Notes under the pieces: model-generated
Told to the model about the DNA's origin: nothing
The model's input: only the letters and a program-made list of their open reading frames with translations
Database searches by the model: none
Shown: positions 21,629 through 44,795 of the stretch, piece by piece
Position numbering within the stretch: the first letter of the stretch is position 1
Layout of the letters: every line of letters begins with the position of its first letter
DNA from: a virus
IMG/VR virus record: IMGVR_UViG_3300045988_103907
Span: 1-64,000 of that record
DNA: 64,000 nt
Strand: one strand, 5' to 3'
Made by a program: the position numbers and the translations under genes

Positions 21629-21641
21629 AAAGCCTCCTCAT

Positions 21642-21659
21642 GCATCCTGTGTTGTGTAG
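21642..21659 (-). promoter_or_regulatory. Recurrent motif copy (CTACACAACACAGGATGC on the coding strand) directly upstream of ligase RBS
   Basis: Member of the GTATCCTGT/ACAGGATAC motif family, downstream of a terminator hairpin. Confidence 0.4.
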
Positions 21660-21667
21660 TTACAACC

Positions 21668-21700
21668 AATAAAGAAAGGCTTGCCATTACGAGCAAGCCA
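21668..21700 (-). terminator. Rho-independent terminator (GGCTTGC-TCGTAATG-GCAAGCC followed by TTTCTTTATT on the minus strand)
   Basis: 7-bp GC-rich stem plus T-rich tail read on the minus strand, downstream of the recD-like gene. Confidence 0.5.
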
Positions 21701-21710
21701 TTTCTTTCTC

Positions 21711-21790
21711 GTATCCTGTATTATATAGCTAAAGAGAGATTTTTAAGCCTCCGAGATGGAGACTTTTTATAGCTATATTATACAGGATGC
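21711..21790. promoter_or_regulatory. Inverted pair of the recurrent motif (GTATCCTGTATTATATAGCT ... AGCTATATTATACAGGATGC) with 40-nt spacer containing a small CTCC/GGAG hairpin
   Basis: Exact 20-bp inverted repeat read in sequence. Confidence 0.5.
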
Positions 21791-21801
21791 TTATATAATT
21801 G

Positions 21802-24132
21802 TCAATGCTTTTCTGAAAATTCTTTCCGTAAAAATTCCTTCAGGAACGTCCGCTTATATGGAACTCTCGAAGTCTTTACCGCCCGATCAAGAGCATGAGT
21901 TTCAGCACAAATCACACAATACTTCTTAGCACGAGTGATGGCCGTATAGAGCCATTCTCTCGTCAACATCAAGTACGCAGAGTTATCCATACCAACAATC
22001 ACATACGGAGCCTCACTGCCCTGCAGTTTATGACAACTTAAAGCATAAGCAAGTTCAAGCGTTGCCCAGATGTTATTCCCACCAAAGTAATGTGGAATGA
22101 AGATCGTTCCCCACTGGTCAAAATCAACCAGAATAAAACTGCTTTCAATCTTTCGAATGATGCCACGGTTGCCGTTAAACACCGGACACTTCTCTTCTTT
22201 TTTCTTTGTCTTGAGATTGTATGTATGAAGTTCATAGTTATTCTTGTTGATAATGACCTGATCGCCCTCGCGCAGAGTGTACACTCTGTCCTTTCCATCA
22301 CCATAGACGGAAATCTTCGCTTCGGTCTGACCACGATTTGGATTCACAATCTCCTGAATAGCGTTATTCACCTCGTAGGTGCAGATGCTACCACGGAGCT
22401 TCTGCGGAAGTACAATCTGAATCTTCGCACTATCATTCCCTACCTTATTATATAAGGTACGGTACTGATTGATGATGTGGTTGAACGACTCATTTGCATC
22501 CTTATAGATATCAAGCTCCAAGTCACGAAGTTCACCACGAATCTCATTGCCAGCCCAGCCATAAGGAACCAACTGCGTAGCATTACGAACCTTAATGCTT
22601 TCCGTGATAATTGCAGACTTAGCTGCCTGACGATGGATCTTAGTCAAACGAGCAACAGGAACAACCTTAGATGCAAGCATATCCTTGAAGATGTTGCACA
22701 TACCGATACTCTCAAGCTGTCCGTCATCACCAATCATGATAAATCGCTTACCAGTTTCGATTGCTTGAATCAAATCGTAAAATAATTTAGCGCCAACCAT
22801 AGAGGTTTCATCCAGAATGATGATATCCTCCTCTAAAGGATTGTTCTTATTATGAATAAAGCCACCATTTTCAATGTCGTAACCAAGGAGGCGGTGAATT
22901 GTCTTGCCGTCCTGACCAGTAATCTCCTGCATACGAGCAGCAGCACGACCAGAGAGTGCAGTCTGGGCAAACGACTTACCACGAAGAACCTTTAGGACAC
23001 CAGCGACAACGGTACTTTTACCGGTTCCTCCGTAGCCTGTCAAGATACAGACATTACTAGAGCATACCTTTTTAATAGCATCTCTCTGCCCCTCGGTGTA
23101 CTCGATGCCAAGAGCACGTTCCGCCTCATCGATTGCAGCGTCCATGTTTCGACCAATCGGCTCAACAGGTGCATCCGCCAGACGCTTAATTTCCTTTGCA
23201 ATCTCATTTTCCAGATTCCACACTCTGGTCAAAGCAAATTCTTGACGATCATCACTCCACCAAAGCGTTTCACGGACATCGTGCAGATGGAAAAGTGCTC
23301 TCTTGATAACCTCTTGGTCACCCTCATCCAAGCCAAGTTCCTTAATGCAACTATTTATTGTCTGGTTTGCCGGGATGATAGAATTGCCTTCTTCGGCACG
23401 GTCGGCAAGAAAATGCATGACGTAAGCTTCAATTCGGAACTGAGAGTTTGGCTTCAATCCCATATTCAATGCAAGAGCGTCAGCTTTCTTCCATCCAATA
23501 CCATATACATCGTCAATCAGAACATAAGGGTTCTCTTCAATCTTCCTAACCAGAGTGTCTGCACCGTGATATTGATGAACAAGTTTCCCGATTGCACTGG
23601 GAGTCAAACCATACTCAATCAGCTTCGTGTATGCTTCGCTATTATCAATATTATTTTCAAAGGCATCGATAATTTTCTGTGCTCGACCTTCCGTGATGCC
23701 ACTAACAGTGCAAAGAGACTTGATATCACCGTTCTTGATGATCTCATACGGATTGTCAAATGCTTCATAAAGCATCTCAAACTGATGTTCTGTTAAGATA
23801 AAATGGAGAAAGCTTTTCTGTTCTTCTGGGTCAGTAATCTCTTGAAACTCATTCATGTAGACGATTTTATACTGGTCACCAAACTTTTCATGGTGAACAT
23901 ACTCGCCACAGAACGAATAAGTCTTATCCATATCAAGACTAGGGACGTTGCCTTTCAGTCGGAGGTCACTATATCGGCTCATGATAGGGTTTCCCTGCTT
24001 GATTTTTACCACTTCGGCAGAGAAAGTGGCGAAGCCGCCGGGCTCCACCTCCTTCCCATCTTTCGGATAAAAGACTCGTTTTATCCTGATATAGCAACGA
24101 ATCATATTTTCATTAAATTTCTTATTTGCCAC
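21802..24132 (-). CDS. RecD-like SF1 DNA helicase
   Basis: Walker A ILTGYGGTGKST, C-terminal HKLQGSEAPYVIVGM typical of RecD/RecD2; 776 aa. Confidence 0.8.
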   Translation of the reverse strand: MANKKFNENMIRCYIRIKRVFYPKDGKEVEPGGFATFSAEVVKIKQGNPIMSRYSDLRLKGNVPSLDMDKTYSFCGEYVHHEKFGDQYKIVYMNEFQEITDPEEQKSFLHFILTEHQFEMLYEAFDNPYEIIKNGDIKSLCTVSGITEGRAQKIIDAFENNIDNSEAYTKLIEYGLTPSAIGKLVHQYHGADTLVRKIEENPYVLIDDVYGIGWKKADALALNMGLKPNSQFRIEAYVMHFLADRAEEGNSIIPANQTINSCIKELGLDEGDQEVIKRALFHLHDVRETLWWSDDRQEFALTRVWNLENEIAKEIKRLADAPVEPIGRNMDAAIDEAERALGIEYTEGQRDAIKKVCSSNVCILTGYGGTGKSTVVAGVLKVLRGKSFAQTALSGRAAARMQEITGQDGKTIHRLLGYDIENGGFIHNKNNPLEEDIIILDETSMVGAKLFYDLIQAIETGKRFIMIGDDGQLESIGMCNIFKDMLASKVVPVARLTKIHRQAAKSAIITESIKVRNATQLVPYGWAGNEIRGELRDLELDIYKDANESFNHIINQYRTLYNKVGNDSAKIQIVLPQKLRGSICTYEVNNAIQEIVNPNRGQTEAKISVYGDGKDRVYTLREGDQVIINKNNYELHTYNLKTKKKEEKCPVFNGNRGIIRKIESSFILVDFDQWGTIFIPHYFGGNNIWATLELAYALSCHKLQGSEAPYVIVGMDNSAYLMLTREWLYTAITRAKKYCVICAETHALDRAVKTSRVPYKRTFLKEFLRKEFSEKH

Positions 24133-24144
24133 TTTATAGTCCTC

Positions 24145-27100
24145 TTACGCTATCTCTCTATCATGCAGCCACTGCTTGTAAGGTTTGAAGTCGCTTGCAA
24201 TAACGTGCGATTCATCTTCCTTCTTTCCGAGCACAGCTACCTGACTTCCCTTTACAATCAAATCCTGATAATCTGACAAGACTCTCGGCCATACGGTCAG
24301 CTCAATGATACCATCGCCAGAATACAGATTTACAAATGCAAACTGCATACCAGTCTTTGTTTTCTTCTTTTGGATCTTTGCGATAATACCAACAAGCACA
24401 CAAGAATCACCTTCTTCAATTTCAGAAAAATCCTTAATGTAAGTAAATGCCTTCTCGAAAGGATTCGGGTCACTGATAAAGGTCTGCAAAGTCTGGAACT
24501 CCCAAAGTTCTTCATCTTGTAGATATTTCGTAGTCTGCTCGGCCATATATGCTTCTTTCTTTTTCAGCTTCTCAGTTTCATGTACGACACGACGCTTTTC
24601 ATTATAGATTCGTAGGACGGTTTCTTTATCAACCTTCTTACCAACCTTACAATGCTCCGTATCAATATCCCACTTACTCAGCAAAACTGCCTTGGTAGGA
24701 AGTGTACTGACTGGTTTAAATTCAGATTGTTCCAAACCGCTGGCAATATACTTTTCCAAAAATACTCGTTTGTTCTTTGTAGGAATCGCACCGGATTTGA
24801 CCAACGCAATGATCTGCGCTTTCGTTGCACGAACACGACTCGTAAAATCATCAAGTCCCTTAAATTTTCCATTTCTATCTCGTTCTGCAATGATAGTTTC
24901 AGCAAGTGTATTGCCAATACCACCGATAGCAGATAAGCCAAACAGAATTTTGCCATTTGACACAGTGAAATCCATACCGGAACGATTGATACTCGGCGGA
25001 AGAATCTGAATATCAAAGCTGCGTGCATCCACCATAATCTTGTTGACCTTGCCAACCTTTGCTTTATTTAGGTTCAACATAGCCTTAAAGAATGCAAGCG
25101 GATGGTGTGTTTTTAAGTATGCGGTTTGAAGGCAGATAACGGCATACGCCTGAGAATGGCTGGCGTTGAACCCATAGCCGCCCTTCGTTGACAACTCGTT
25201 GCAAATGTACTCGGCGGTCGCTTTATCGTATCCATTCGCAATAATCTCATCATGAAGAAGTTCGACTTCTTCCTTGACTTTCTCAGGTTTCTTCTTTGCC
25301 AAACACTTACGCATTCTATCAGCACCGGCATCGTTTCGACCGCCAAAGACCTTCGTGAGCTTCATGCTCTGTTCCTGATAGATGTTCACGCCATAGGTAC
25401 TGCGGAAAATTGGTTCCATATCAGGATGGAAGTAGTGAATATGTTCAGGATGATACTTGCAATCAACGTATGTAGGAATCGACGGCATTGCATCAGGACG
25501 ATAAAGAGCAATCAGAGCAGACAACTCTTCAATCGACCTAGGCTGAAGCTGCGCAACCAGATCTTTCATGCCAGACGATTCAATCTGGAATAGATTGTCT
25601 GTCTTACCGGAACAAATCAAATCGTAAGTTGCCTTGTCGTTCTCGAACTCTGGATTGTTGATATCAATTTCCCAGTCTGGAATATTATCCTCACGCTTCG
25701 CTTCATCAATAGCAACCAGCGACGCAACACCAAGAATATCAAACTTGACGAGTCCAATCTTCTCGTCCATCACTTTATCAACAGAAATAACGTGTTCTCC
25801 GTCAGTGCCGTGCCGAATGCCGATATACTCATAATAAGGATGTCGGCAGACAATAACACCGCCAGCATGAATACCATATCCTCGTGGGCGACCATTGATA
25901 TGACTTGCGATGTCAAGTAGTTCCTTATACTTCGGATTTTCAACCACTTCCGGGTTGGCTTCACGACAATCCTTCCATGTCTTTTGAACAAACTTCTCGC
26001 TGATTTTTCTTATTTCGGCATACGGAAAACCGAGAACTTTACCAACGTCCTGAATCGAAGTGACCGGAGTAGTGTACACGATGTTCATAACCTGAACTAC
26101 TCGATCTTCTCCATACTTCTGTGTCAGATACTCGACGACCTTGGCACGGTCACTGACATCAACATCAACGTCAGGAAGGTCTTTTCGCTCAATGGTAAGG
26201 AATCGTCCGAAGTCAAGTTCATACTTGATGGAATCAAGCTGCGTAATGCCAATCAGGTAACATACAAGTGAGCCAGCTGCAGAACCACGACCAGGGCCAA
26301 CAATGACATCATTTTTCTTACACCAGTTGATGTAATCAACCAGAATCAAAAAGTAATCACAGAAGTCTTTCTTCTCAATGACAAATAACTCGTCATCAAC
26401 ACGCTTACGATAGATTTTCTGTTTTTCTACATCAAACTTGTCAATACCGCGTTTCTTCCATCCCTCTTTTACAAGGTCTTTCAAGTAAGCTGCTGAGTTA
26501 GAATACTGTGGAGGAATCTCGATTTTAGGAAGTTCAGGTTCGTGCCAAGGCATATCCACATAGTCACATAAGTCAGCAACCTCATCAGTATTGTTGATAC
26601 ACCATTCTGCTGCATCATATCCAATCTGACTATCAAGGACCTCATGTTGCTCTTTACGAGACATAAAATAGCATCCCTCGTAGATTTCTGCGGCAGTTTC
26701 CGTATCATGTGCGATACGAAGGAAGTAATCTTGATAATAAAGATCCTCTTTGGTAGCAGCATGAACATCGTTTGTGACGACTACTTTTGTATGAGTATCG
26801 TTTGCCAACCGCATGATTTTCTGATTATATTTTGCTTGTTCACTGTTTGCGTGAGCCTGAACCTCAAGATAATAGTGAGGGAATAAGTTCTTATACTCTT
26901 GAACCAGCTTGACACAAGTGTCATAATCATCCGTTCTGGACAGCCTACTCGCCAAACAAGCAGACAGGATAATTAAATTATTCGTATCTTCCTTAGCGAT
27001 ATCCTCTTTTGTGATACGAGGACGGCTGTAAAAGCCATGAAGATGACCGAGTGTAGATAAGCGATTGACTGCCTGACGACCAGCTTCGTTTTTTGCGATG

Positions 27101-27360: not shown

Positions 27361-27362
27361 TC

Positions 27363-28118: not shown

Positions 28119-28310
28119 TCATTCACCCCTCTCATAAACTCGCCAATGCCATGTGCTACCATCGCCCGGATAAAACCTATCGCAAAAGTCCTCAAAACGA
28201 CATCCTTCACATGGATCATCTTTTGATAAATCTATCACTGGATGGCTTTGGCATTCTGCGATAAATTCTTTAACGTCTGCTTCAAACTGTTCAGGCATCA
28301 GCATTGTCAA
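28119..28310 (-). CDS. Cys-rich hypothetical protein
   Basis: 63 aa; its TGA is immediately followed in frame by the ATG of the phosphoesterase gene. Confidence 0.35.
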   Translation of the reverse strand: MTMLMPEQFEADVKEFIAECQSHPVIDLSKDDPCEGCRFEDFCDRFYPGDGSTWHWRVYERGE

Positions 28311-28638: not shown

Positions 28639-28639
28639 A

Positions 28640-31383: not shown

Positions 31384-31392
31384 TGTAGTTCC

Positions 31393-34766: not shown

Positions 34767-34799
34767 ATATGTAAATTCCTCTCTAAATCTTTTCTTTTA

Positions 34800-35093: not shown

Positions 35094-35107
35094 AACTAGC
35101 CCTCTCT

Positions 35108-35127
35108 GTATCCTGTATTACTTAGCT
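35108..35127 (-). promoter_or_regulatory. Recurrent motif copy GTATCCTGTATTACTTAGCT
   Basis: Read in sequence, intergenic. Confidence 0.4.
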
Positions 35128-35138
35128 AAGACTAAAAA

Positions 35139-36242
35139 TTACAGTCCCCAGTCATCTTCTTCCTCGTTTACAGGAGTTGCAGTAGACTTGTTAGAATCAC
35201 CCCACCAAGAAGTGTCGTTCTCAGCGGCCTTACCGTCGAAGTCCTTCTTTGCCTGAGCATTGGCAGCAATCTTTGCCCGTGCCTCGGAGATATTGTCCTC
35301 AGTGTAAGTGGGCTCTGCATCCTTCTCGCCAGGGTTCGGATCAAAGGAATCAGGGTTAACACCCTCAATATACAGCTTGCGAACCGCCGGAGTGCTCTGG
35401 CGCTTCATCTTGTTGGGGCCACCCCAGATATTCTCGGTCTCAACTTCCTCAACCTTCTGCTGATTAACGATAGGGCCAAAGCACTCAAAACTGGTATAGG
35501 GCTTCAAACGCTTACGAATAGAGTCTGCCAGAACCTTATTCTGAGTGTTTGCCTTATAGTCAATGAAAAACTCTGCATCCTCGATAGTGTTGTAATTCAC
35601 GATCTTTGCATCGACAACTACCTCATCGCACTCATCGCTCTTGCGGCAACCAGTGTAAATAATGGTCTGAGTAAACAGAGCCAGCTCCTCGAAACCCTCT
35701 GCATCGAAGTCAATTTCCTTGGAGCTCAGAGACACCTGAGTAGGAACGAAGCGGATCTGGTGCTTGTCGTTGTAAGTGCTGTACTCGATGTTGCCACGGA
35801 TATACACGTTGTCACCGTCATGCAGATTCTCGGAAATCTCCTTGGCTGCATCGAAGTCGGTCAGAGTCTTGTTATCATTGACAACCTTACCAGACTCATT
35901 CGTCTTCTTGGTAACACCGACCTTAACGCCAATCATATCATAGCCTTCCGGTGCAACATAAGTCAGACGATCCTTCCAAGCGACTTCCTTCTTATCCTTC
36001 TCGATGCCCTTGTCCTTATCGGCACGGCGGAAGAAGTAAACCTTATCACGAGGCATACCAGCCAGATCAATATAGAAAGTGTTTTCATTGGAAGTCTGAA
36101 CGCCAAAGCTTAGGACACGGCGCATAGCGCCACTCTTGGTCTCCTTCTCGTTATAGAAGTTACTACGCTGGGTGCCGGTGACCTTACCAGCCATCTCAAA
36201 AGAACCACGGGTCTGAGGAAGATTAAAAATTCTATCTGCCAT
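35139..36242 (-). CDS. Hypothetical protein with acidic C-terminal tail (possible SSB-like)
   Basis: 367 aa ending NEEEDDWGL; position next to the ATPase in the replication module; no firm motif. Confidence 0.3.
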   Translation of the reverse strand: MADRIFNLPQTRGSFEMAGKVTGTQRSNFYNEKETKSGAMRRVLSFGVQTSNENTFYIDLAGMPRDKVYFFRRADKDKGIEKDKKEVAWKDRLTYVAPEGYDMIGVKVGVTKKTNESGKVVNDNKTLTDFDAAKEISENLHDGDNVYIRGNIEYSTYNDKHQIRFVPTQVSLSSKEIDFDAEGFEELALFTQTIIYTGCRKSDECDEVVVDAKIVNYNTIEDAEFFIDYKANTQNKVLADSIRKRLKPYTSFECFGPIVNQQKVEEVETENIWGGPNKMKRQSTPAVRKLYIEGVNPDSFDPNPGEKDAEPTYTEDNISEARAKIAANAQAKKDFDGKAAENDTSWWGDSNKSTATPVNEEEDDWGL

Positions 36243-36388
36243 ATCAAGTCTCCTTTATGTAATTTTGTTTCATTGATAATCACTTATATTTCTTTTTTGT
36301 TGTCTTGAATCAATTCATGCACTATTCATTTTATGTATTCTCCTCCGTTTGGCTTATTGATGGCTTATATTTTATACGGCATTCGCCG

Positions 36389-36601: not shown

Positions 36602-36618
36602 ACGGCATCACCCCATTT

Positions 36619-37103: not shown

Positions 37104-37120
37104 GTCACCTCTTATTTGAA

Positions 37121-37657
37121 TTAGCCTTTTATAAGTTTTCGTAACTCCAACTTGCTTGGTAAGAAGTCTCGGCAGAAATACGCACTGCCAAATGACACTC
37201 CCTCGACGGGCTTGTCCTTATGCTTGTCATCCATAAATCCGATTCTTGAGTCAAAGCAGAGCATTTGAACATCGTTATTGAAGATTTCAAATCTCGTCTT
37301 GCCTTGGATACTGTTTGCCGGAAGTAATAAAGCAAATGGTTTTCCAAGCTCATACGCTCTGCGGAGCACCCTATCTTTCTTACTAAACGGCGGATTTGAA
37401 ATCATAATATCCCAGCACTCAGGTTCATATGTAAAGAAATCTTGCCCATTATCAATGTGGCTGCACTCTACTTGATATCCCGCTTCTCGAAATACTTTTG
37501 CGAATTCAGACCAATCCTTATCAAATGGACACCAAATCACTACTTGGCTCGATGGGGGGATGAACTCAAGCAACGGAGTTACTGCGTACCGTGGCGTGTA
37601 TCGCTCATCTCCATTAGATGAACGGTCTGCCGTAAGATAACCCTTATTTTCTGGCAT
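37121..37657 (-). CDS. Dam-like DNA N6-adenine methyltransferase
   Basis: ISNPPFSKKD catalytic motif; start set at MPENKGY with GTGAGGG RBS; resembles phage Dam family. Confidence 0.7.
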   Translation of the reverse strand: MPENKGYLTADRSSNGDERYTPRYAVTPLLEFIPPSSQVVIWCPFDKDWSEFAKVFREAGYQVECSHIDNGQDFFTYEPECWDIMISNPPFSKKDRVLRRAYELGKPFALLLPANSIQGKTRFEIFNNDVQMLCFDSRIGFMDDKHKDKPVEGVSFGSAYFCRDFLPSKLELRKLIKG

Positions 37658-38288
37658 TTTCGCCCTCACTTTCGATGTAAGCCGTGAACTGTTCTGCAAA
37701 GGCACGAGCAACACCATGAAAAGTCTTGGCTCTATTTTTCGCATCCTCACCACGTTTGGCTGCGCCACGATTCCTTACATTGCCTTTATTGGCCGAAGTT
37801 CCACAAGGACAATACGGACCCTTCGGTTCAACCGCTTCAACCGGAACCAGATTAGGAAGACCTTTCAGCCATAAACAGGTCTTCTTTGTCCATGGGTGGT
37901 CCTTACCATAAAATTCATATGGCTGAATCATCTGCGATGGTTTTGGCATTTTATAGACAGCACTTGGAATTGGATTCTCAACACAAATGTGTTTAATCGG
38001 TGCGTTATAAAACGCCATAAAAAATTCCTTAGCTTCCAATCCTTGTTGATACCGTTCTTGATTCAATTTGTGCCCAGCCCACAACCATCGTGCGCCAGCA
38101 TTTGATAAATATGTACACGGAGGATGCGCAATCAATAGATCCCACTGCTCAACATAGTGTTGTATGCCATCCATTGTGACTATCTGCCCACCCTGTAGAG
38201 CTACCAGTGCATTACCCAAAATATGCCACTCTGGGTGACCACCGGACGGAGGTTGAATATCGCAAGAATACGCTTCATGACCAAGCAA
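37644..38288 (-). CDS. C5-cytosine DNA methyltransferase-like protein (short; start uncertain)
   Basis: Motif IV-like AHPPCTYLSNAG and motif VI-like ICVENP; coding signal extends upstream of the TTG start toward an AAGGAGG RBS with no canonical in-frame start. Confidence 0.55.
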   Translation of the reverse strand: MLGHEAYSCDIQPPSGGHPEWHILGNALVALQGGQIVTMDGIQHYVEQWDLLIAHPPCTYLSNAGARWLWAGHKLNQERYQQGLEAKEFFMAFYNAPIKHICVENPIPSAVYKMPKPSQMIQPYEFYGKDHPWTKKTCLWLKGLPNLVPVEAVEPKGPYCPCGTSANKGNVRNRGAAKRGEDAKNRAKTFHGVARAFAEQFTAYIESEGENARK

Positions 38289-38362
38289 TCGAAATGCTTT
38301 ACAAACTTCCTGTGATTCCTCACAGGCAATTAGAACTCGTAAGATTACACATTCCTCCTTTT

Positions 38363-38382
38363 CGTATCCTGTGTAATATATC
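38363..38382 (-). promoter_or_regulatory. Recurrent motif copy CGTATCCTGTGTAATATATC just upstream of the methyltransferase RBS
   Basis: Read in sequence. Confidence 0.4.
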
Positions 38383-38487
38383 TAAAACTTTAAAAATGAG
38401 CGAAAAACAATAGACGTATTAACGTCATATTATTCATTCGCTTATAAAACAAAAGTTCTAGCAGGTTTTATGTACGCCCTATCGGGC

Positions 38488-38579
38488 TGGTGGGACGTAA
38501 GGGACTCGAACCCCTGTGAGGTGTTATTCTCATCACCCGGTTATGAGCCAGGAGCTTTAACCAACTAAGCTAACGTCCC
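38488..38579 (-). tRNA. tRNA with CAU anticodon (Met/Ile2-type anticodon loop CUCAUAA) and an unusual ~20-nt variable arm; 92 nt with encoded CCA
   Basis: Hand-folded: acceptor GGGACGU/ACGUCCC, D arm GCUU/AAGC, anticodon stem CCUGG/CCGGG, T arm AGGGG-UUCGAGU-CCCUU. Confidence 0.5.
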
Positions 38580-38589
38580 ATGCAAACGC

Positions 38590-38680
38590 CGACTTTCATC
38601 GGCGCGATACCAGTGAAGGAATCGAACCTTATCTCTCGGTGTTTCCGAGCGCTTTTACCATTAAGCTATCCAGCCGTATA
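38590..38680 (-). ncRNA. tRNA-like element with canonical T arm (AAGG-UUCGAUU-CCUU) and D-arm-like segment but no foldable acceptor/anticodon stem; possible pseudo-tRNA
   Basis: Hand-folding fails (anticodon stem CUCGG/CCGAG encloses only 5 nt); followed by hairpin CGCCGA-UGAAAG-UCGGCG. Confidence 0.25.
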
Positions 38681-38806
38681 CCTCAGAATTTAATTCTCAC
38701 TATCCAAGCTACGTCGCGTTCCAATATGATCACTCTTGGCAACCATGTCGTAACATATAGGTTTCTTTCGGCTCTGAGTAACCGGTGCAGCGTAAGGGGC
38801 TGCGTG

Positions 38807-38882
38807 TGGAGCGACTGACGGGGTATGATCCCGCAACATTCAGATTGGAAATCTGACGCTCTGCCAATTGAACTACAGTCGC
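38807..38882 (-). tRNA. tRNA-Gly (UCC)
   Basis: Acceptor GCGACUG/CAGUCGC, anticodon loop UUUCCAA, 76 nt with CCA; atypical T loop AUCAUAC. Confidence 0.7.
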
Positions 38883-38988
38883 ATAATCACCCAGCTTGCA
38901 AAGCACTACTGCACCATCACTGGCGAGCTGGGAATAATAGTGGTAATCAAAGGAGATCAACAAACGGTACGCAACCATAAGTTGATAA

Positions 38989-39077
38989 TGGTGGACACGA
39001 CCCGATTTGAACGGGCACACCGCTGTTAACGGCAAAAGAGCCTAAATCTTTCATGTCTGCGATTCCATCACGTGTCC
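38989..39077 (-). tRNA. tRNA-Leu (UAG), class II
   Basis: Acceptor GGACACG/CGUGUCC, anticodon stem AAAGA/UCUUU loop UUUAGGC, variable arm CCG-UUAACAG-CGG, T arm GCCCG-UUCAAAU-CGGGU, CCA encoded. Confidence 0.65.
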
Positions 39078-39082
39078 ATAAA

Positions 39083-39172
39083 TTGAGGGTGTCGGGATCG
39101 AACCGACGATCGGCTATAAAGCACGCTGTCTGGGTCAAAGCCAGATGCCATTTACCACTTGGCGAACCCTCA
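39083..39172 (-). tRNA. tRNA with UUG anticodon (Gln-type loop CUUUGAC) and an unusual 21-nt variable arm; 90 nt, no encoded CCA
   Basis: Acceptor UGAGGGU/ACCCUCA, D arm GCCA/UGGC, anticodon stem UCUGG/CCAGA, T arm GUCGG-UUCGAUC-CCGAC. Confidence 0.5.
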
Positions 39173-39271
39173 TTATGTAACTTGGCTTGCTGCGTCCTAC
39201 TGCTCCGTTTTTTTGGAGAGCCAAGAATAATAGGAAGGTATTCATGAAAAGCAAGTGGAATACTCCACTGG

Positions 39272-39343
39272 TCCAAAATGTCGAATTCGAATCGCTCTTC
39301 TGCGTCCCAAACGCAGCGTGCTGCCATTACACTACATTCTGGA
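39272..39343 (-). ncRNA. Degenerate tRNA-like sequence (intact acceptor and UGG anticodon arm, defective D and T stems); possible pseudo-tRNA-Pro
   Basis: Acceptor UCCAGAA/UUUUGGA, anticodon stem CUGCG/CGCAG loop UUUGGGA; T stem pairs only 3 bp around UUCGAAU. Confidence 0.3.
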
Positions 39344-39345
39344 TA

Positions 39346-39433
39346 TGGTGCTACCGGAGGGGTATGATCCCTCAATTCCTCTCGGACGGTTGCTTTTAAG
39401 GCAACTGTGTCTCGCCAATTGCACCACGGTAGC
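39346..39433 (-). tRNA. tRNA-Leu (UAA), class II
   Basis: Acceptor GCUACCG/CGGUAGC, anticodon stem GUUGC/GCAAC loop CUUAAAA, variable arm UCC-GAGA-GGA, T arm GAGGG-AUCAUAC-CCCUC, CCA encoded. Confidence 0.7.
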
Positions 39434-39465
39434 ATATAATGTGGCGAGATAACTCGCCACATGTA

Positions 39466-40347
39466 TTATTTTCTTAATTCTTTCCTAGTTGCCGGGAGGC
39501 CATAATATCTACACCATTTTCTAACGGCATTATCAGTCACTCCATATTTTTCGCCAACCTTTAAGAAAGACATAGTTGTTATATCATTCAACAAAGTTTC
39601 TTTTGATGGCCATTCAACATTCCTTCTATCCGGCGAATGCCTATAGCATTCTTTACACAATGTTCCTTTCGTATTGTATTGTAAAGGTTTGCCACACACA
39701 GAGCATCGTCTGCATCTACATTCTCTTTTCTTAACAGGAACTGAAACTTCCTTTTTAGTAAATTCGATATTGTTTTCTTTAATCAATCTTTTAGCTTTGT
39801 CGTACCAACTCTTCGCGGAATAATTTATACCAATTTTAGAAAGTGCTTGTTTTATATTTGGTGATACTTTAAGTGCTTCTATCAACTTTTCTTCTGGAAC
39901 GGCCTCTTTGTATCTTATATTTTTCCCGCAGTAATTATCTGTTTGAGCATGACAATTTGGACATAAAAGTTGTAGATTGCTCAACTCATTGTTAAGCCTA
40001 TCTCCATCTACATGATGAACCTCCAATGGAATTTCATGTCCCAACTATTCTGTATTGCCACAACATTCACATTTATGAGGTCTTATGTAAAGCAAGGCTT
40101 TCCTTAACTGACTGCTAAAATATACTCCCTTTGTAAATTTTGACAAATCAAAGTTACCTTTGTTCTAGCCTTGTCCAGTAAAATGGGATATGTCTATATT
40201 ATTCTCTTCAACATATTTCTTTAAAGCCGAGTGAGTTCCACCGCTGTTGTCTTTATATCCAAGTTTTCTTGCAACAGCATCTAAGCTTTTACTCTCTCTA
40301 AAAGCTTGCTCAATTTCTTTTTTTGTAAATTTGTCGATTCTTTTCAT
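39466..40347 (-). CDS. HNH homing-endonuclease-like gene whose single reading frame is interrupted by two in-frame TAG codons (40165-40167 and 40045-40047): pseudogene or amber-recoded/suppressed gene
   Basis: Joined frame: N-terminal HTH-like 60 aa, TAG, ...IRPHKCECCGNTE, TAG, LGHEIPLEVHHVDGDRLNNELSNLQLLCPNCH (classic HNH), Zn-finger region, C-terminal KYGVTDNAVRKW HTH. Confidence 0.6.
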
Positions 40348-40538
40348 GAATTTGCCTCCAATATCTAATATGTGGACGTTCGGACTCTGGTGCCAAGGAC
40401 GGTATTCGAAACCGCATGTGTTTCCACAGCGAGGTTTGGGCTCGCCCTGTCTCCCATTTGCAGCACCTTGGCATATTGCCGGTCTTTCCCGGCTGTCAGC
40501 CCCGCGCAGGGCATTTTCGGAGGAAGAAAATATCTTAG

Positions 40539-42749
40539 TTATTCGTGCCGATTCTCATAGAATTCATTCCGTAACTGAATAATACCCTTCTTGCAAAAAG
40601 ATTCCTGGTCTTTCTCTCGTTGCTCACGCATCCAACCATAGAACAGGTTATCCTCAGCAGTAAACAACTTTGCGGTATTTTCATAATAGCCACGCTTCTG
40701 AACGCTCTGCATAACACCACGCAAGAACTTCCAGTGCTTATAATAAGGAAGCTTCAGCTTAAACATAAAATTGTTGTTATCTCTCAAAACAAAGCCTTCA
40801 ATATGCTCGATGCCATGGTACAGATAATTCTCATTCATGACCTCTTCATACCAAGGATAGAATTCACTCCAGCTCTCAAAGATCTTAACCTTCTCCTTAA
40901 TCTGCAAATGACACTTTTCAGCAACACGCTTCAGATCATCGTAATCCATCACACTGAAGTTCATATCATTCGCAACAATATCCAGCAAAACAATGTGCGG
41001 TTTCTTGTATTCGATGATATGAGCATCATTCACAGGATCAATCACTTCAAAAATGATGGAACCATTCTCTTTTGCAACCTCCTTCAAATTCTTACGGTCT
41101 TCATCAGAGGTCGTATCCATGAGAATCTTTCGGAACATATCTGCAAAAGGCCCTTCAGGAGTGGATTTACTTGCAATGAACATACCATCCTGTTCTGCAT
41201 CATACGAGACAATGCCAAGAAATCCGTTTTCCTTCAGATATGCAGTCACCGGGAACTTCAAAGTGTTCTGTAGGTTTCCAATTCTCGTTTCATTCCGCTC
41301 ATCGACCGCAAAGGACTTATCATAGCTTCGAGCTACAATCTTATTCGTCTTTGTGTTAATGAACAATCCCCTTGCTTTGGTAGAAACCTCATCCCAGTGC
41401 TTCTTATAAAATGCTTCACGAGAGAAGTTGAAGGAAGAAATATCTCCGAATCGCTTCTCAAACACATATTTGCTTTGACGCATCTTACTGACAAGTTCTG
41501 CGTTATCGAACTCAGTTTTCATTTCAACGGCAGTTTCAGTCTTTGGCTCCTCTTTTCGGAATACATCGTTCTTTGTTTCTACACATTTGATTGACTGACC
41601 GTGTTCAAGTTCCACGCAACGGAGATATCCACCAAACTCAATTTTTCCTTCGAGGTTGTAGCACCGATGCCCCATATCAATAGGAACATCCTGCACATTT
41701 CGATGACCGAATATCTGAATGTAGCTATCCGGCATCGATTTTTCCCAAGACTCAGCCACGGTTAGCATATCAGGATAGCGACCAACACCCTTTACCATCT
41801 GGTCAGTAGACACGAATGGTAGAAATTCAGGCAAATAACTCAAACCACCATGGCTAACGAAGTATCTTTTCTCGTCGTAATCAAAATAGGAGCACTGTCC
41901 TACTCTCGAATAAACCTTACGAGCCGTATTATGGTCAATCCCTGCTTTGAAAAGCTGCGGACGAGTGTAGTTTGCGAACTCCTCGCTCTGAACCGGTTCA
42001 TCATGGCCCCACTTGTTCAGCCACCGTTCGTGATTTCCTTCAAGGAGAATTACATTCTTCCGATTATTGTCTACAACATCACAAAGGAACTTGAACATCT
42101 CTACATTCTCAATACCGCGATCCAGATAATCACCAACAAAAATGTACAGTTCATCATCCTTCAGGTCACCAAGGTACTCTTTCAAGCAACTGTAACATCC
42201 ATGTACATCACCGATGATATGAATTTTGTTCCAGTTGTTAAAGTCCTGCGGAACATAGTTCAATTTCTCAAGGACATTTACATCTGACGAAAGTACAGTC
42301 ACACCAGACGGAATCTTCTGTGTAGCAAATCGCGCATACATCTTATCAATAGCAGCATCTGGAACTCGCTTCAGAGGAGCACGAAGCGCATTACGCCGTT
42401 TACACTCATCAATCGGCAAATCAGTCATGTCGATGATGTACATTCTGTATCTGTACTGCTTTGCAAGATTCTTATAGCGATTGATTTCAACAGTTTTAGA
42501 GTTCGTTGCATCAATCACGGTAAATTCACCGTGAGACATCCGAACCTCCAACAGTTTAAAGAGCATATCCCAGACAACATCATCGTTCTGAGGAGAGATT
42601 TCCATTGTGCCAGCCGGGGTTTCCTGACCACCCTGACACATAAGGCGAATCGTATCGGCACTAAGCGTATACTTTTCCAGATCATGCTCTTTAATATAGG
42701 TGGATTTCCCGCATCCGGGTGCTCCACGGAAAAGAAGCAAAGTTCTCAT
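40539..42749 (-). CDS. Pnkp-like polynucleotide kinase / metallophosphatase / ligase-like adenylyltransferase (end-healing and sealing RNA-repair enzyme)
   Basis: N-terminal P-loop GAPGCGKST, central calcineurin-like IHIIGDVHGCYSCL...GDYLDRG...GNHE, C-terminal ligase motif I-like LKENGFLG; 736 aa. Confidence 0.65.
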   Translation of the reverse strand: MRTLLLFRGAPGCGKSTYIKEHDLEKYTLSADTIRLMCQGGQETPAGTMEISPQNDDVVWDMLFKLLEVRMSHGEFTVIDATNSKTVEINRYKNLAKQYRYRMYIIDMTDLPIDECKRRNALRAPLKRVPDAAIDKMYARFATQKIPSGVTVLSSDVNVLEKLNYVPQDFNNWNKIHIIGDVHGCYSCLKEYLGDLKDDELYIFVGDYLDRGIENVEMFKFLCDVVDNNRKNVILLEGNHERWLNKWGHDEPVQSEEFANYTRPQLFKAGIDHNTARKVYSRVGQCSYFDYDEKRYFVSHGGLSYLPEFLPFVSTDQMVKGVGRYPDMLTVAESWEKSMPDSYIQIFGHRNVQDVPIDMGHRCYNLEGKIEFGGYLRCVELEHGQSIKCVETKNDVFRKEEPKTETAVEMKTEFDNAELVSKMRQSKYVFEKRFGDISSFNFSREAFYKKHWDEVSTKARGLFINTKTNKIVARSYDKSFAVDERNETRIGNLQNTLKFPVTAYLKENGFLGIVSYDAEQDGMFIASKSTPEGPFADMFRKILMDTTSDEDRKNLKEVAKENGSIIFEVIDPVNDAHIIEYKKPHIVLLDIVANDMNFSVMDYDDLKRVAEKCHLQIKEKVKIFESWSEFYPWYEEVMNENYLYHGIEHIEGFVLRDNNNFMFKLKLPYYKHWKFLRGVMQSVQKRGYYENTAKLFTAEDNLFYGWMREQREKDQESFCKKGIIQLRNEFYENRHE

Positions 42750-42825
42750 TGTTTTCTCTCCTTTTACTTAACGCATTATCATTATTTATTCATTTCCAAT
42801 TCTTTATAAAATGTCTATTTTAGTT

Positions 42826-42845
42826 TAGTATCCTGTGTCATATAG
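42826..42845 (-). promoter_or_regulatory. Recurrent motif copy TAGTATCCTGTGTCATATAG between terminator and Pnkp-like gene
   Basis: Read in sequence. Confidence 0.4.
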
Positions 42846-42849
42846 TTAT

Positions 42850-42890
42850 GATGTTAAAATCAAGGGGCCGAAGCCCCCTGTTTTTAATTT
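42850..42890. terminator. Bidirectional Rho-independent terminator GGGGCCGAAGCCCC flanked by A/T runs
   Basis: GC stem with GAA-type loop, TGTTTTTAATTTTT on plus side, TTGATTTTAA on minus side. Confidence 0.6.
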
Positions 42891-43810
42891 TTGTGGAAGT
42901 ATTCGACCCAGCCCTTGTATCCCTGCCGGAAACTAATGTAAGCTACCTTGCTACACTTTCTTCCAATAATGTCTGCAAGAGGTTTTTTACCATTTCCGAA
43001 ACTAAGCTCCGCAAGGTTGAACTCTGAATTACTCTTACAGTAATCGTAGACCTTCACATACTCACCATTTCTGGTCAGATGTCTTCGATCTAAAATCTTT
43101 GTATGATGTCTTTTTTCGAGAATGTCATTCAGCCTCACAAAATAACTATGGATTGTATTTACAGACATCTTCGGGTCGCTGTCTACACCAGTTCTATCCT
43201 CTGTTTTACGAAGAATGTAATCACCATTTATGACATAAAATGTTCTGTATCCTCCCATATTGGGCGCATCATACTGTTTCATTTCATAACACTGCTTGAT
43301 GATATCCATCAACCTTGCGTCAACATCAGTCCTATCGAGGACAGTACGAGATTCAAAGTCTACATCGTTAATTGTTAGATTAGAAACCTCACTAGAAGTA
43401 AGACCGATCCAGTACAAAACAGCAATCACATTCATACGAATCTGATACGCTTCTTCATACTTGTTTAAGAAACCAACAAACTCATCAACCGATGCAAAAT
43501 ACTTGTCCTCGTACATATTGTCTGAACTCACATCGCTCTCTGAGAATTCAGCCAAATCATACATGCTTGTACGATTTTCGTTCTTGATATAACCAGTGAT
43601 TATCGATTTCACATTTCTGAATGAACGACTTGAGTTTACCCAATTGTATTTGGCAAACATCTTTACAAAATCATCTTTTGTGAAGTCGAATAGCTCATAC
43701 CCGCACTCCGCTTCGTAGTCCATAACATGGTTAAGTGTCGATATAACAAACTCGCCGCTTCTATCAGAATACTTTTCAGCAAAAGCGTTGATCTTTTCTT
43801 CAGTAAGCAT
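42884..43810 (-). CDS. Hypothetical protein
   Basis: 308 aa ORF; no firm motif recognised. Confidence 0.4.
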   Translation of the reverse strand: MLTEEKINAFAEKYSDRSGEFVISTLNHVMDYEAECGYELFDFTKDDFVKMFAKYNWVNSSRSFRNVKSIITGYIKNENRTSMYDLAEFSESDVSSDNMYEDKYFASVDEFVGFLNKYEEAYQIRMNVIAVLYWIGLTSSEVSNLTINDVDFESRTVLDRTDVDARLMDIIKQCYEMKQYDAPNMGGYRTFYVINGDYILRKTEDRTGVDSDPKMSVNTIHSYFVRLNDILEKRHHTKILDRRHLTRNGEYVKVYDYCKSNSEFNLAELSFGNGKKPLADIIGRKCSKVAYISFRQGYKGWVEYFHKN

Positions 43811-43863
43811 AATGGCACACTCCTTCTTATTATATGTAGTGTACCATTAACCCTTATAAAAAA

Positions 43864-44283
43864 TCAAGCAAATGCGGCAAAATTCTGAAATTCCATAGTA
43901 TGTTGTACGCCGCTCACGAACGCCGAGATCAAAAACGGTTCATCCTTGCATCTGGCCATTGCGATCATATTCATATGACGCTCAGACAAGACACCAAGCT
44001 TTTTGATAAACTGCCCTTTGTTAAGTGTGTCAGTCTCTTCACAGAGAACGATACTGTCAACCTCTAGGAAATCGCAATCTTCCTTTGAGAGCAGGACATG
44101 AACCGGAGAACGCTTGTATGTTCTGGAAGACAACGGATTCCCTTTGATTGTGGGACTGAAGAAGTTGCGCTTATTGTTACTCGTCACAACGAACGGTCGA
44201 ATACCGCGCTGCTGATGACCTGTCGCATTGGATAGATCAACCAACCAAACCTCTCCGACCTTTGGGTCAATATTGTTGTCCAT
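43864..44283 (-). CDS. MazF/PemK-like endoribonuclease toxin
   Basis: GEVWLVDLSNATGHQQRGIRPFVVTSNN...VHVLL...LEVDSIVLCEETDTLNKGQF pattern typical of PemK/MazF. Confidence 0.6.
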   Translation of the reverse strand: MDNNIDPKVGEVWLVDLSNATGHQQRGIRPFVVTSNNKRNFFSPTIKGNPLSSRTYKRSPVHVLLSKEDCDFLEVDSIVLCEETDTLNKGQFIKKLGVLSERHMNMIAMARCKDEPFLISAFVSGVQHTMEFQNFAAFA

Positions 44284-44320
44284 AGTCTTTCTCCTCTATA
44301 ATAGTGTAGCTCCGTTCCAT

Positions 44321-44340
44321 AGCTATATTATACAGGATAC
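44321..44340 (+). promoter_or_regulatory. Recurrent motif copy in inverted orientation (AGCTATATTATACAGGATAC) upstream of the MazF-like gene
   Basis: Read in sequence. Confidence 0.4.
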
Positions 44341-44374
44341 CTTTACAGAAGTCAATAGGTTTTCGAAAATATTT

Positions 44375-44701
44375 TTAGTGCCCGTACAACTCTGGATTCT
44401 CTGATACGAACACGCTGGTGTTATCGAAGATCATCTCATACGCTTTCTCTTTATCGCCCGGCCTAAACTCAACCCTCCTTACTTCGTAGCATTCTTGCCG
44501 CAGCTCAACATGACTTTCGTTTCCAAAAAATCCAATGCCTTTGACAATCCCATGTGTCTCTACACCAATATCGTTCATCTTCTTGCAGATCATGTGAACA
44601 TCCACACCATTACAAATAAAGCAGACCCACACTCGCTTTTTTCTTATGTACTTCAAAAAGTTTTCAACCTGTATAATTTCCAAAACCTTTTTCTCACTCA
44701 T
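44375..44701 (-). CDS. Hypothetical protein upstream of MazF-like toxin (candidate non-canonical antitoxin)
   Basis: 108 aa; no AbrB/MazE-like motif seen. Confidence 0.35.
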   Translation of the reverse strand: MSEKKVLEIIQVENFLKYIRKKRVWVCFICNGVDVHMICKKMNDIGVETHGIVKGIGFFGNESHVELRQECYEVRRVEFRPGDKEKAYEMIFDNTSVFVSENPELYGH

Positions 44702-44737
44702 TGAAATACCGCCTTCCGCTCACATAAACAACTTTCA

Positions 44738-44795
44738 AGATATATTATACACATCTTTTTGTTTTCGTCAATATATTACACATCTTTTTGTTGTA
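44738..44795. repeat. Tandem degenerate copies ATATATTATACACATCTTTTTGTT / ATATATTACACATCTTTTTGTTGT related to the recurrent motif
   Basis: Read in sequence, intergenic. Confidence 0.4.

Follow-up and report, generated by a model that had tools for sequence, protein, structure and literature searches.

Genes and boxes in the region

The region described here is part of a 64-kb window (the whole stretch of phage DNA that was analysed) and contains several copies of a 21-bp repeated box, TAGCTATATAAYACAGGATAC, which is asymmetric. The boxes lie among a ligase gene, a YorF-like gene, a tRNA cluster, a C5-MTase-like ORF, a Pnkp/RNA ligase gene and an operon that begins with a PemK/MazF-like toxin gene and ends with the gene of an integrase-fold repressor. 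Every gene of the box region is on the minus strand, and therefore five boxes are in the sense orientation (reading TAGCTATATAAYACAGGATAC) while two are antisense to transcription. The features, in window coordinates, are:

21642..21662, minus strand: box copy A, sense, TAACTACACAACACAGGATGC; matrix score 29.5, the most degenerate copy
21678..21699, minus strand: terminator-like hairpin between copies B and A, GGCTTGC...GCAAGCC plus TTTCTTTATT
21711..21731, minus strand: box copy B, sense, TAGCTATATAATACAGGATAC; matrix score 35.9
21770..21790, plus strand: box copy C, antisense to transcription; its minus strand reads GCATCCTG-TATAAT-ATAGCTA
21777..21805, minus strand: predicted sigma-A-type promoter, TTGACA-17-TATAAT (12/12), pointing at the ligase gene
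35108..35128, minus strand: box copy, sense, TAGCTAAGTAATACAGGATAC
38364..38384, minus strand: box copy, sense, TAGATATATTACACAGGATAC
42828..42848, minus strand: box copy, sense, TAACTATATGACACAGGATAC
42863..42879, minus strand: terminator-like hairpin ending the PemK-repressor operon
42884..43810, minus strand: MrpR/YopR/SroF-like integrase-fold repressor gene, 308 aa; proposed box binder
43864..44283, minus strand: PemK/MazF-like toxin gene, first gene of the operon whose last gene is the repressor
44320..44340, plus strand: box copy, antisense to transcription; its minus strand reads GTATCCTG-TATAAT-ATAGCTA
44327..44355, minus strand: predicted sigma-A-type promoter of the PemK-repressor operon, TTGACT-17-TATAAT (11/12)
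44740-44761 and 44771-44790, minus strand: two direct repeats, CAAAAAGATGTGTA(T)AATATAT, that are not box copies and share with the box only TGT.TAATATA (-10 context)
44771-44744, minus strand: third strong predicted promoter, TTGACG-16-TATAAT, overlapped by the direct repeats; for the 108-aa orphan gene at 44375-44701

When the window was searched with GTATCCTGTRTWATATAG, allowing up to three mismatches, exactly seven matches were found (21642+, 21711+, 21773-, 35108+, 38364+, 42828+ and 44323-), against a chance expectation of 0.15, and none of 100 shuffles reached seven. These are the same seven places at which a sequence-only reading of this DNA had seen the motif, and the copy that it had called inverted, at 44321, indeed matches on the opposite strand. 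A 26-nt weight matrix built from the seven copies and run over all 64 kb gave them scores of 29-36, with the next best site at 14 and shuffle maxima of 8-16, and returned no copy beyond the seven. A genome-wide motif search had been proposed as a check on the motif; within the window, all seven copies, spread over 23 kb, are intergenic, although about 92% of the window is coding by crude ORF calling. The "degenerate tandem copies" that had been described at 44738-44795, on the other hand, are a separate element (the direct repeats above), which has no GGATAC and scores below the matrix threshold. The information content of the box drops sharply at both edges.

The boxes at 21642, 35108 and 38364 end 13-15 nt 5' of a start codon and adjoin its Shine-Dalgarno sequence, in agreement with the earlier remark that several copies are placed directly 5' of such a sequence. 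Copy A is 13 nt from the ligase ATG (21628), directly before the Shine-Dalgarno sequence and just past a terminator hairpin; the 35108 box takes up most of the 45-nt gap from the YorF-like gene (35139-36242, a Pfam YorF match) to a 97-aa gene (start 35093), whose ATG is 14 nt from the box end; and the 38364 box lies past the tRNA cluster and a weak hairpin, adjoining the Shine-Dalgarno sequence of the C5-MTase-like ORF. Three boxes, one more than had been noticed, come after terminator-like hairpins (21678-21699, 42863-42879 and, more weakly, 38413-38426); among these the 42828 box lies 15 nt past the repressor-operon terminator, with the Pnkp/RNA-ligase gene (start 42749) following about 80 nt further on. 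Copy B, the downstream partner of an inverted pair, spans roughly +40 to +60 relative to the start predicted for the promoter at 21805, and a terminator hairpin comes after it. All five sense boxes are within the transcribed path, with the TAGCTA end always toward the oncoming polymerase, and lie either 40-130 nt past a box-covered promoter or directly between a terminator and the ribosome-binding site of the next gene. The uniform orientation of these boxes and the terminator-box-Shine-Dalgarno layout would also suit a directional element, e.g. a promoter.

Boxes on predicted promoters

The window has no more than six promoter-like matches at 11/12 or better, and two of the three such matches that are intergenic and on the coding strand carry a box in identical register, TTGAC(A/T)-N9-GTATCCTG-TATAAT (a consensus match). 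These are the two antisense boxes: copy C covers the last 8 nt of the promoter spacer, the -10 and the start region, and the 44320 box overlaps the spacer and -10 of the predicted PemK-repressor operon promoter, which is 44 nt upstream of that operon. Related phages keep both the -35 and the box unchanged, whereas the 9-nt spacer between them is variable. Where the box stands with respect to promoters is not constant in relatives: it lies over the -10, or boxes lie on both sides of a TTGAAC-17-TATAAT promoter, which fits an operator and not a promoter element.

The motif had been suggested to be either a phage-specific promoter class or the operator set of a phage regulator. Under the former, the box would be a directional promoter, either served by an RNA polymerase or sigma factor of the phage or working without a -35, from which transcription resumes past terminators; the RNA would begin at GGATAC or just after it. 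Five boxes do share one orientation relative to the genes, three of them lie between a terminator-like hairpin and a Shine-Dalgarno sequence with scant room for another promoter, and this pattern is seen again in several other contexts of relatives; moreover, a conserved asymmetric sequence of 21 bp has the size of the promoters of single-subunit RNA polymerases. However, the other two boxes, read as promoters, would be directed at the 3' ends of upstream genes, although base for base they match the consensus sigma-A -35/-10 of the sense direction. A sigma-A promoter has its -35 and -10 hexamers 16-18 nt apart and a T at the critical last position of the -10, whereas the sense boxes have no conserved -35 and their would-be -10 ends in C (TATAAC) in 15 of 27 related contexts. 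There is also a related context in which the sigma-A promoter lies between two boxes and not inside one, and one in which the box starts 8 nt past TATAAT, i.e. downstream of the promoter. Neither an RNA polymerase nor a sigma gene was present among the window ORFs examined. Because the promoter-overlapping copies are antisense, the sense copies have no -35 and often a TATAAC, and a promoter can lie between boxes, the promoter class is unsupported and we regard it as unlikely. The other half of the suggestion, the operator set, is supported by the fixed register on sigma-A promoters, by boxes that flank the repressor operon and by their change together with the repressor allele (see below).

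The putative repressor

The last gene of the PemK-repressor operon encodes a 308-aa protein that matches the Pfam family MrpR_N_CB with 21.9 bits, under the gathering score of 27 and thus marginal for a single protein; in an alignment of its HMMER relatives, 29 of 42 sequences matched the same family. This alignment included MrpR of phage SPbeta itself, probably the source of its best E-value; a family profile built without MrpR aligned to SPbeta MrpR in hhalign with a probability of 91.7% and an E-value of 7.6e-7 over 258 columns. An AF2 model of the protein (pLDDT 89.5) had, as its top seven Foldseek matches in the PDB, structures of phi3T SroF-DNA (9rd5), SroF-Sar (9rgl), YopR (8bpz/8bj6) and MrpR (8a0a), with E-values of 6e-8 to 7e-7, whereas true tyrosine recombinases reached only about 1e-3 in the same search. 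The first catalytic arginine (Arg-I) is replaced by T137, GLTSSE being aligned to GLRISE of the Tn1549 integrase; in the family alignment this column holds T, S, N or K and the Arg-II column is not conserved, while Y297 is invariant and aligns with Y304 of MrpR. By its sequence, the repressor at 42884-43810 is a remote homologue of SPbeta MrpR that is catalytically degenerate. A tblastn search with it against 50,697 phage records gave no match.

One may also consider that the boxes are recombination or inversion sites of a tyrosine recombinase, or the terminal repeats of a small mobile element, since three proteins with the tyrosine-recombinase fold are encoded in the window, an inverted pair of boxes 1.5 kb apart brackets the PemK-repressor operon, and closely spaced boxes invariably form inverted pairs, 36-40 bp apart and with outer ends 78-81 bp from each other. 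The 21711/21771 pair does have the 40-nt spacer that had been given for it, but it is not perfect as had been claimed: GTATCCTGTATTATATAGCT and the reverse complement GCATCCTGTATAATATAGCT differ at 2 of 20 positions (18/20 complementary). The box, however, has no internal dyad and no core with a 6-8 bp crossover spacer (a core site consists of two inverted arms of 9-13 bp), and the MrpR-like protein has lost the first catalytic arginine. Furthermore, box positions are conserved across dozens of genomes, and none of the related contigs that were read departs from the common gene order and orientation or shows an inverted or excised variant. Recombination sites are therefore an extremely improbable reading of the boxes.

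An RNA role, either as a hairpin of the inverted pair for processing or termination or as a 5'-UTR site for cleavage or binding, e.g. by a PemK/MazF-like RNase, also appears highly unlikely. The minus-strand RNA of 21625-21800 folds at -59.9 kcal/mol (z -7.9) with both boxes paired, and five boxes are transcribed in sense orientation just before a Shine-Dalgarno sequence; in addition, UACA, which is present in the box, resembles known MazF sites. Nevertheless, the strength of this fold follows trivially from the inverted repeat, most boxes stand alone and cannot form a hairpin, and the conserved sequence of 21 nt far exceeds the length of a MazF site. No Rfam family was matched, and relatives showed no compensatory changes that keep the pairing. 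Transcripts from the box-covered promoters would start past GTATCCTG, so that these boxes would be absent from the RNA.

Box and repressor alleles in related phages

Three related contigs, L150-L152, have the same gene order and a PemK that is 91% identical, while their repressor is only 37% identical. ACAGGATAC is absent from these three contigs, which carry instead, at the same two positions flanking the operon, an inverted pair of a different box, AAGTATAGTAWACAGAATTT. In contrast, a repressor allele that is 75% identical retains the ACAGGATAC box. No box is present ahead of the methylase gene in the type-B phage.

This concerted change of box and repressor is not exclusive, since L150 is a mosaic (individual proteins are 35-91% identical) and the two types also have different versions of the 108-aa orphan beside the operon, so that another type-specific factor could be the binder. 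Candidates are the 108-aa protein, which is encoded immediately upstream of the box-covered promoter and lacks a BLAST match in the type-B contig, so that it too co-varies with the box, and a 289-aa integrase-family protein (50255-51124) that is only 55% identical between the types. We nevertheless consider it rather improbable that either of them is the binder: for the 108-aa protein neither a DNA-binding domain nor a homologue was detected in Pfam, PHROGs, NCBIfam or the PDB, and a Sar-like antirepressor would be expected to be just such a small, type-specific partner, whereas the MrpR/SroF family is the one for which binding to long, asymmetric, multi-copy boxes has been shown experimentally, and the boxes bracket the operon of the MrpR-like gene itself.

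A proposed set of operators

Taken together, it is likely that the boxes are the operators of the MrpR/SroF-like protein encoded at 42884-43810, which would be the master lysogeny repressor of this phage, i.e. a new set of the MrpR/SroF-SPBRE kind and not a class of promoters. It speaks against this reading that a recognisable promoter is overlapped by only two of the seven boxes. By analogy with phi3T SroF, we infer that each box would be clasped by a single repressor molecule, acting as a monomer. At the two boxes that extend over the spacer, the -10 and the start site of predicted, near-consensus sigma-A promoters of the host type, bound repressor would exclude RNA polymerase. One of these promoters is that of the PemK-repressor operon, so that binding would result in negative autoregulation, and the boxes probably do autoregulate the operon that they flank; the other stands ahead of the ligase gene. 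The five sense boxes, in contrast, may serve as roadblocks or insulators against read-through into replication, repair and tRNA genes in the lysogen. The phage indeed looks temperate, given its Tn916-type integrase (226-1392) and the presence of repressor homologues on contigs of up to 784 kb.

A more elaborate scenario is one in which the box has a dual use, as a DNA operator and, through UACA in the 5' UTR ahead of the Shine-Dalgarno sequence, as an RNA site for the PemK/MazF-like endoribonuclease of the same operon. The same replication and repair genes would then be silenced by both products of a single operon, by one on the DNA and by the other on the RNA, although we think this quite unlikely. 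In a milder version, the sense boxes would be orientation-dependent (polar) roadblocks that, together with the terminators, insulate lytic genes in the lysogen.

Comparison with known systems

The SPBRE boxes of Bacillus phage SPbeta (Lazarevic 1999, as cited in PMC10516654) coincide with the ChAP-seq peaks of MrpR (Kohm et al. 2023, PMC10516654). In the SPbeta genome (NC_001884) we found SPBRE between the -35 and -10 at yorE, yorZ, yonP and yosX, and directly before the Shine-Dalgarno sequence at yopM, yopV and yonX, and both of these contexts, the promoter core and the position directly before the Shine-Dalgarno sequence, are found here too. The two systems also share an integrase-fold repressor without recombinase residues, encoded by the last gene of an operon and followed by a terminator, as well as a long, non-palindromic, AT-rich box in some 7-12 copies. 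In both, the boxes are intergenic and in the early-gene arm, some of them on sigma-A promoter cores including that of the repressor's own operon, and they occupy comparable places of a replication module whose gene order is that of SPbeta yorF/yorG-yorL.

The differences are nonetheless considerable. Homology of the repressors is detected only at the profile and structure level (14-17% identity), and the box sequences are unrelated, TAGCTATATAAYACAGGATAC here as opposed to ACAAATAATATGTAT in SPbeta; no shared alignment was found between TAGCTATATAAYACAGGATAC and either the SPBRE copies in NC_001884 (..ACAAATAATATGTATA..) or the phi3T box CAGTAATTTTATTTTTATTCTTAATG. With so low an identity between repressors, a box unlike SPBRE is expected, and the element is to be seen as an analogue or distant homologue of SPBRE, not as the same element. 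Boxes here occur in both orientations, with inverted pairs of fixed span, whereas those of SPbeta have one orientation and are mostly in promoters. The operon here consists of PemK/MazF and the repressor, in place of sroA-F in SPbeta, and the phage comes from human-gut metagenomes and has an anaerobic NrdD, rather than being a Bacillus phage.

Phi3T provides the best structural matches to the predicted protein (SroF structures 9rd5 and 9rgl, E-values 6e-8 to 8e-8). According to bioRxiv 10.1101/2025.11.27.690993, the SroF monomer binds a non-palindromic box of 26 bp, of which it reads 24 bp, and many such boxes are dispersed over the genome; a monomeric read-out of about 24 bp would explain an asymmetric 21-bp box with sharp edges. 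The phage-specific pairs of repressor and partner parallel the two immunity types observed here. No Sar/YopT-like antirepressor was found one ORF downstream of the repressor, where a 736-aa Pnkp/RNA ligase is encoded instead; the candidate partner here is the unrelated 108-aa orphan, upstream of the repressor. LexA-like boxes, a sign of the LexA control under which such antirepressors stand, were not enriched (13 found vs. 18 expected).

In lambda, the HTH proteins CI and Cro bind as dimers to short palindromic operators that cluster at two sites, whereas here copies of a long, asymmetric box are scattered over 23 kb and the associated protein has an integrase fold. What this phage has in common with lambda is the presence of several operators, on early promoters as well as on that of the repressor itself, and of immunity types in which repressor and operator are matched. 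Most likely, the system adds a new case to a kind of lysogeny switch that was described only recently, that of SPbeta and phi3T.

Box copies in the window

All seven copies of the recurrent motif listed by the sequence-only reading are present as matches to GTATCCTGTRTWATATAG with up to three mismatches (21642, 21711, 21773(-), 35108, 38364, 42828 and 44323(-)), and none occurs elsewhere in the window; the chance expectation, obtained from dinucleotide-preserving shuffles, is 0.15 matches. A scan of both strands of the 64 kb with a 26-nt weight matrix derived from the copies recovered only the same seven, with scores of 29-36, while the runner-up scored 14, which is within the range of shuffled sequence. 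The proposed intergenic preference was also borne out, since 7/7 copies are intergenic although about 92% of the window is coding (crude ORF calling). The box is thus a real and non-random feature, 21 bp long and asymmetric, with sharp boundaries. For the 21711/21771 pair the 40-nt spacer was confirmed, but complementarity extends to only 18/20 positions and is not perfect, and the supposed degenerate tandem copies at 44738-44795 turned out to be a separate element, two minus-strand direct repeats CAAAAAGATGTGTA(T)AATATAT that have nothing but a -10 context in common with the box. A search for LexA boxes showed no enrichment.

Boxes and promoters

Judging by GC skew and the ORF map, essentially all genes of the window lie on the minus strand. 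Relative to transcription, five boxes are sense (TAGCTATATAAYACAGGATAC) and two are antisense (21770-21790 and 44320-44340). Both antisense boxes sit, in identical register, on the region's best predicted sigma-A-type promoters:

21805-21777, minus strand: predicted promoter, TTGACA-17-TATAAT, 12/12 consensus
44355-44327, minus strand: predicted promoter, TTGACT-17-TATAAT, 11/12 consensus

In both, the spacer ends in the 8 nt GTATCCTG, followed by TATAAT as the -10 and by ATAGCTA over the start region; promoter-like matches of at least 11/12 number only six in the entire window. Both promoters are parts of a 57-nt paralogous module (repeat family D6) that has a palindromic TTTTC(T)GAAAA immediately 5' of the -35 (21809-21819 and 44360-44369), which we take to resemble a CodY box (AATTTTCWGAAAATT) or an UP element. 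A related phage with a different box (type B, see below) has TTTTCCAGAAAA at the place of this palindrome (contig L150, ~9438-9449).

The sense boxes are located in the transcribed path, TAGCTA end first toward transcription, each preceded by a box-covered promoter or a terminator and followed immediately by the Shine-Dalgarno sequence (SD) of the next gene:

21642, sense: copy A, after a terminator hairpin, ending 13 nt before the ligase ATG
21711, sense: copy B, ~40-60 nt downstream of the 21805 promoter
35108, sense: box occupying the 45-nt gap between two genes
38364 and 42828, sense: boxes each after a hairpin

In relatives, 27 sequence contexts show the box in three positions relative to promoters:

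Position (i): over the promoter spacer and -10
Position (ii): in inverted pairs, GTATCC..TAGCTA-N36-40-TAGCTA..GGATAC, whose outer span stays at 78-81 bp
Position (iii): in the order terminator-box-SD

One of the inverted pairs in relatives encloses a TTGAAC-17-TATAAT promoter between its boxes. A position that varies in this way with respect to the promoter hexamers is characteristic of an operator and not of a promoter element. At the promoter-overlapping sites of relatives the -35 and the box are invariant and the intervening 9 nt freely variable; as footprinting this is weak, since the flanks are also ~95% identical and only the 9-nt spacers stand out.

The sequence-only reading had wavered between a phage-specific promoter class and the operator set of a phage regulator. 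A directional promoter class is disfavoured: the two copies that match sigma-A hexamers exactly are opposite in orientation to the others, the last -10 position is C in 15/27 contexts, and no -35 signal was found for the sense boxes, either by eye at each copy or across the 27 contexts, which speaks against a -35 of their own. Action at the RNA level is possible, and the inverted pair does fold strongly (z -7.9), but any such repeat would fold in this trivial way, the majority of boxes stand alone, and a search of Rfam returned tRNAs only and no matching family. Recombination sites are likewise disfavoured, the box having no dyad core and no rearranged variants having been seen. It is the operator reading that is favoured by the promoter overlap in fixed register, together with the co-variation of box and repressor described below.

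The operon of PemK and the putative repressor

The predicted promoter at 44355 heads a two-gene operon:

43864-44283, minus strand: PemK/MazF-like toxin gene, first in the operon (Pfam E 4.5e-19)
42884-43810, minus strand: gene of the 308-aa putative repressor, second in the operon
42863-42879: terminator hairpin of the operon, with the 42828 box directly after it

The 308-aa protein has a weak Pfam match to MrpR_N_CB (21.9 bits) and aligns with the box-I region of Tn1549 integrase, where it has another residue in place of the catalytic Arg (GLTSSE vs GLRISE). Exhaustive searching by HMMER with a family profile yielded 68 relatives, and MrpR_N_CB was present in 29/42 aligned relatives, in an alignment that included SPbeta MrpR itself. 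With a 23-member family profile built without MrpR, to avoid circularity, hhalign matched SPbeta MrpR over 258 columns (probability 91.7%, E 7.6e-7). An AlphaFold2 model based on the 23-member alignment reached a pLDDT of 89.5, compared with 51 on a shallow alignment, and its top seven Foldseek matches in the PDB were to phi3T SroF-DNA (9rd5), SroF-Sar (9rgl), YopR (8bpz, 8bj6) and MrpR (8a0a), with E 6e-8 to 7e-7, genuine tyrosine recombinases following four orders of magnitude behind.

We consider it likely that the boxes are operators of this MrpR/SroF-like repressor. A monomer bound to the promoter-overlapping boxes would occlude the -10 and the start site, which at 44355 would result in negative autoregulation of the PemK-repressor operon and at 21805 in repression of the promoter ahead of ligase. 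We infer that the five sense boxes function as roadblocks or insulators that, in the lysogen, would keep transcription from reading through into genes for repair, tRNAs and replication.

Next to the toxin gene, nothing resembling an antitoxin gene was recognised. For a 108-aa orphan (44375-44701, minus strand), Pfam, PHROG, NCBIfam and PDB gave no match; its gene has a separate near-consensus promoter (TTGACG-16-TATAAT, 44744-44771), overlapped by the two 20-21 bp direct repeats mentioned above. The orphan protein is a candidate for an antirepressor analogous to Sar, or for a second regulator.

Co-variation of box and repressor

The most telling comparative result comes from three related contigs (L150-L152) that have the same local gene order and a PemK that is 91% identical, whereas the adjacent repressor is only 37% identical. 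The box sequence ACAGGATAC is absent from these contigs; a different box, AAGTATAGTAWACAGAATTT, occurs there as an inverted pair at the two orthologous positions, namely over the spacer and -10 of the operon promoter and just after the repressor terminator. A repressor allele of 75% identity retains the original box. Since two sites 1.5 kb apart change in concert, one type-specific factor presumably reads both, and the comparison yields at least two immunity types, box and repressor having changed together between them, with the caveat that L150 is mosaic and that the upstream 108-aa orphan is also not conserved between types; another type-specific protein could thus be the binder. A 15-mer of the type-B box gave only chance single matches and two unrelated tandem arrays in IMG/VR.

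Spread and host

The exact motif was found in more than 115 IMG/VR stretches, mainly contigs of 70-140 kb, among which the spacings of the window (62, 69, 131 and ~1495 bp) were found again. Human-gut-type metagenome assemblies are the source of the repressor homologues of 75-99% identity, which lie on contigs of up to 784 kb. Along with the integrase of Tn916 type, this points to a temperate phage whose host is an anaerobic Firmicute. Among 50,697 phage records there was no match to 21-24 kb by megablast or to the repressor by tblastn, and the relatives of the DNA polymerase (Alicyclobacillus KKP_3916, Brevibacillus Sundance) are just 29-35% identical. In the search for a host, a scan of genome contigs for the repressor protein found nothing and a motif scan of them gave 27 single matches in unrelated taxa, no more than a rough chance estimate (a few dozen). 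Searches for related loci seeded with the repressor-family profile built without MrpR (A3) and with three proteins (P0079, P0083, P0145) returned none.

Other genes of the window

Several further features were observed:

226-1392: integrase of Tn916 type, at the edge of the window, where the prophage likely ends
37644-38348, minus strand: ORF after the 38364 box, C5-methyltransferase-like (PPCTYLS motif)
37121-37768: 215-aa ORF overlapping the latter
38488-40472, minus strand: cluster of seven tRNA genes (Met, Gly, Leu x3, Gln, Pro); several measure 85-92 nt, lengths that are long variable or intron-like
39466-40044: HNH endonuclease ORF interspersed in the tRNA cluster
49569-50258, minus strand: DUF6291/DnaB_2-like protein, adjoining the next
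50255-51124, minus strand: second, short (289-aa) Phage_integrase-family protein upstream of the repressor region, 55% identical between immunity types

The methyltransferase-like ORF matched no Pfam or NCBIfam model and has no in-frame ATG/GTG/TTG near its strong SD, the first canonical start being TTG 38288; its translation may begin at a non-canonical codon or involve a frameshift. In relatives the place is taken by an unrelated 457-aa DNA_methylase, and one of them (L153, 12936-14225) has a Cas12f1-like gene (TNB, TnpB-type) as an insertion that separates the tRNA region from the methylase; the tRNA-methylase region is a hotspot for mobile insertions. Auxiliary genes (226-1392, 1657-2484, 11067-17116) include FolD and ThyX, two SPFH/flotillin-family proteins flank the anaerobic ribonucleotide reductase NrdD, and these genes suggest an anaerobic host.

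Comparison with known systems

To our knowledge, Bacillus SPbeta-like arbitrium phages are the only ones for which a master repressor of integrase fold, acting through long and asymmetric boxes dispersed in the genome, has been described (2023-2025). In SPbeta-like phages this master repressor is MrpR/YopR/SroF, and ChAP-seq in SPbeta placed MrpR on the SPbeta repeated element (SPBRE) in ~10 promoter regions, its own operon's included (PMC10516654). In phi3T, the SroF monomer encircles a 26-bp non-palindromic box, reading 24 bp, and the boxes are scattered among widely separated genome regions (bioRxiv 10.1101/2025.11.27.690993); our asymmetric, sharply bounded 21-bp box fits this binding mode. 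SPBRE copies that we extracted from NC_001884 lie either between the sigma-A -35 and -10 (yorE, yorZ, yonP, yosX) or directly before an SD (yopM, yopV, yonX), the same two contexts as in the window, which also has in common with SPbeta the yorF/yorG-yorL gene order (YorF-like, Sak4-like, helicase-sized, primase-like, RecJ and PolIII-alpha genes). The 289-aa integrase-family protein recalls the integrase-like YopP of the SPbeta sro operon.

From sequence and model, the system is probably a new, distant member of MrpR/SroF-SPBRE lysogeny control in a gut phage family, suggesting the same repressor logic in an abundant family of human-gut metagenome phages of 70-140 kb. The box offers a ready sequence tag to find and type such phages, along with natural variants in specificity through which the read-out of 20+ bp by a monomeric integrase fold could be studied, and the system is a test case of a phage with its own MazF-like toxin in the repressor operon. 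In phi3T it is the host MazF that takes part in the lysis-lysogeny decision (bioRxiv 10.1101/2025.11.27.690993), whereas here a MazF-like copy is phage-borne. This toxin in the repressor operon, a box unrelated in sequence to SPBRE and the phi3T box, its use in two orientations and the presence of at least two immunity types are traits of this new member.
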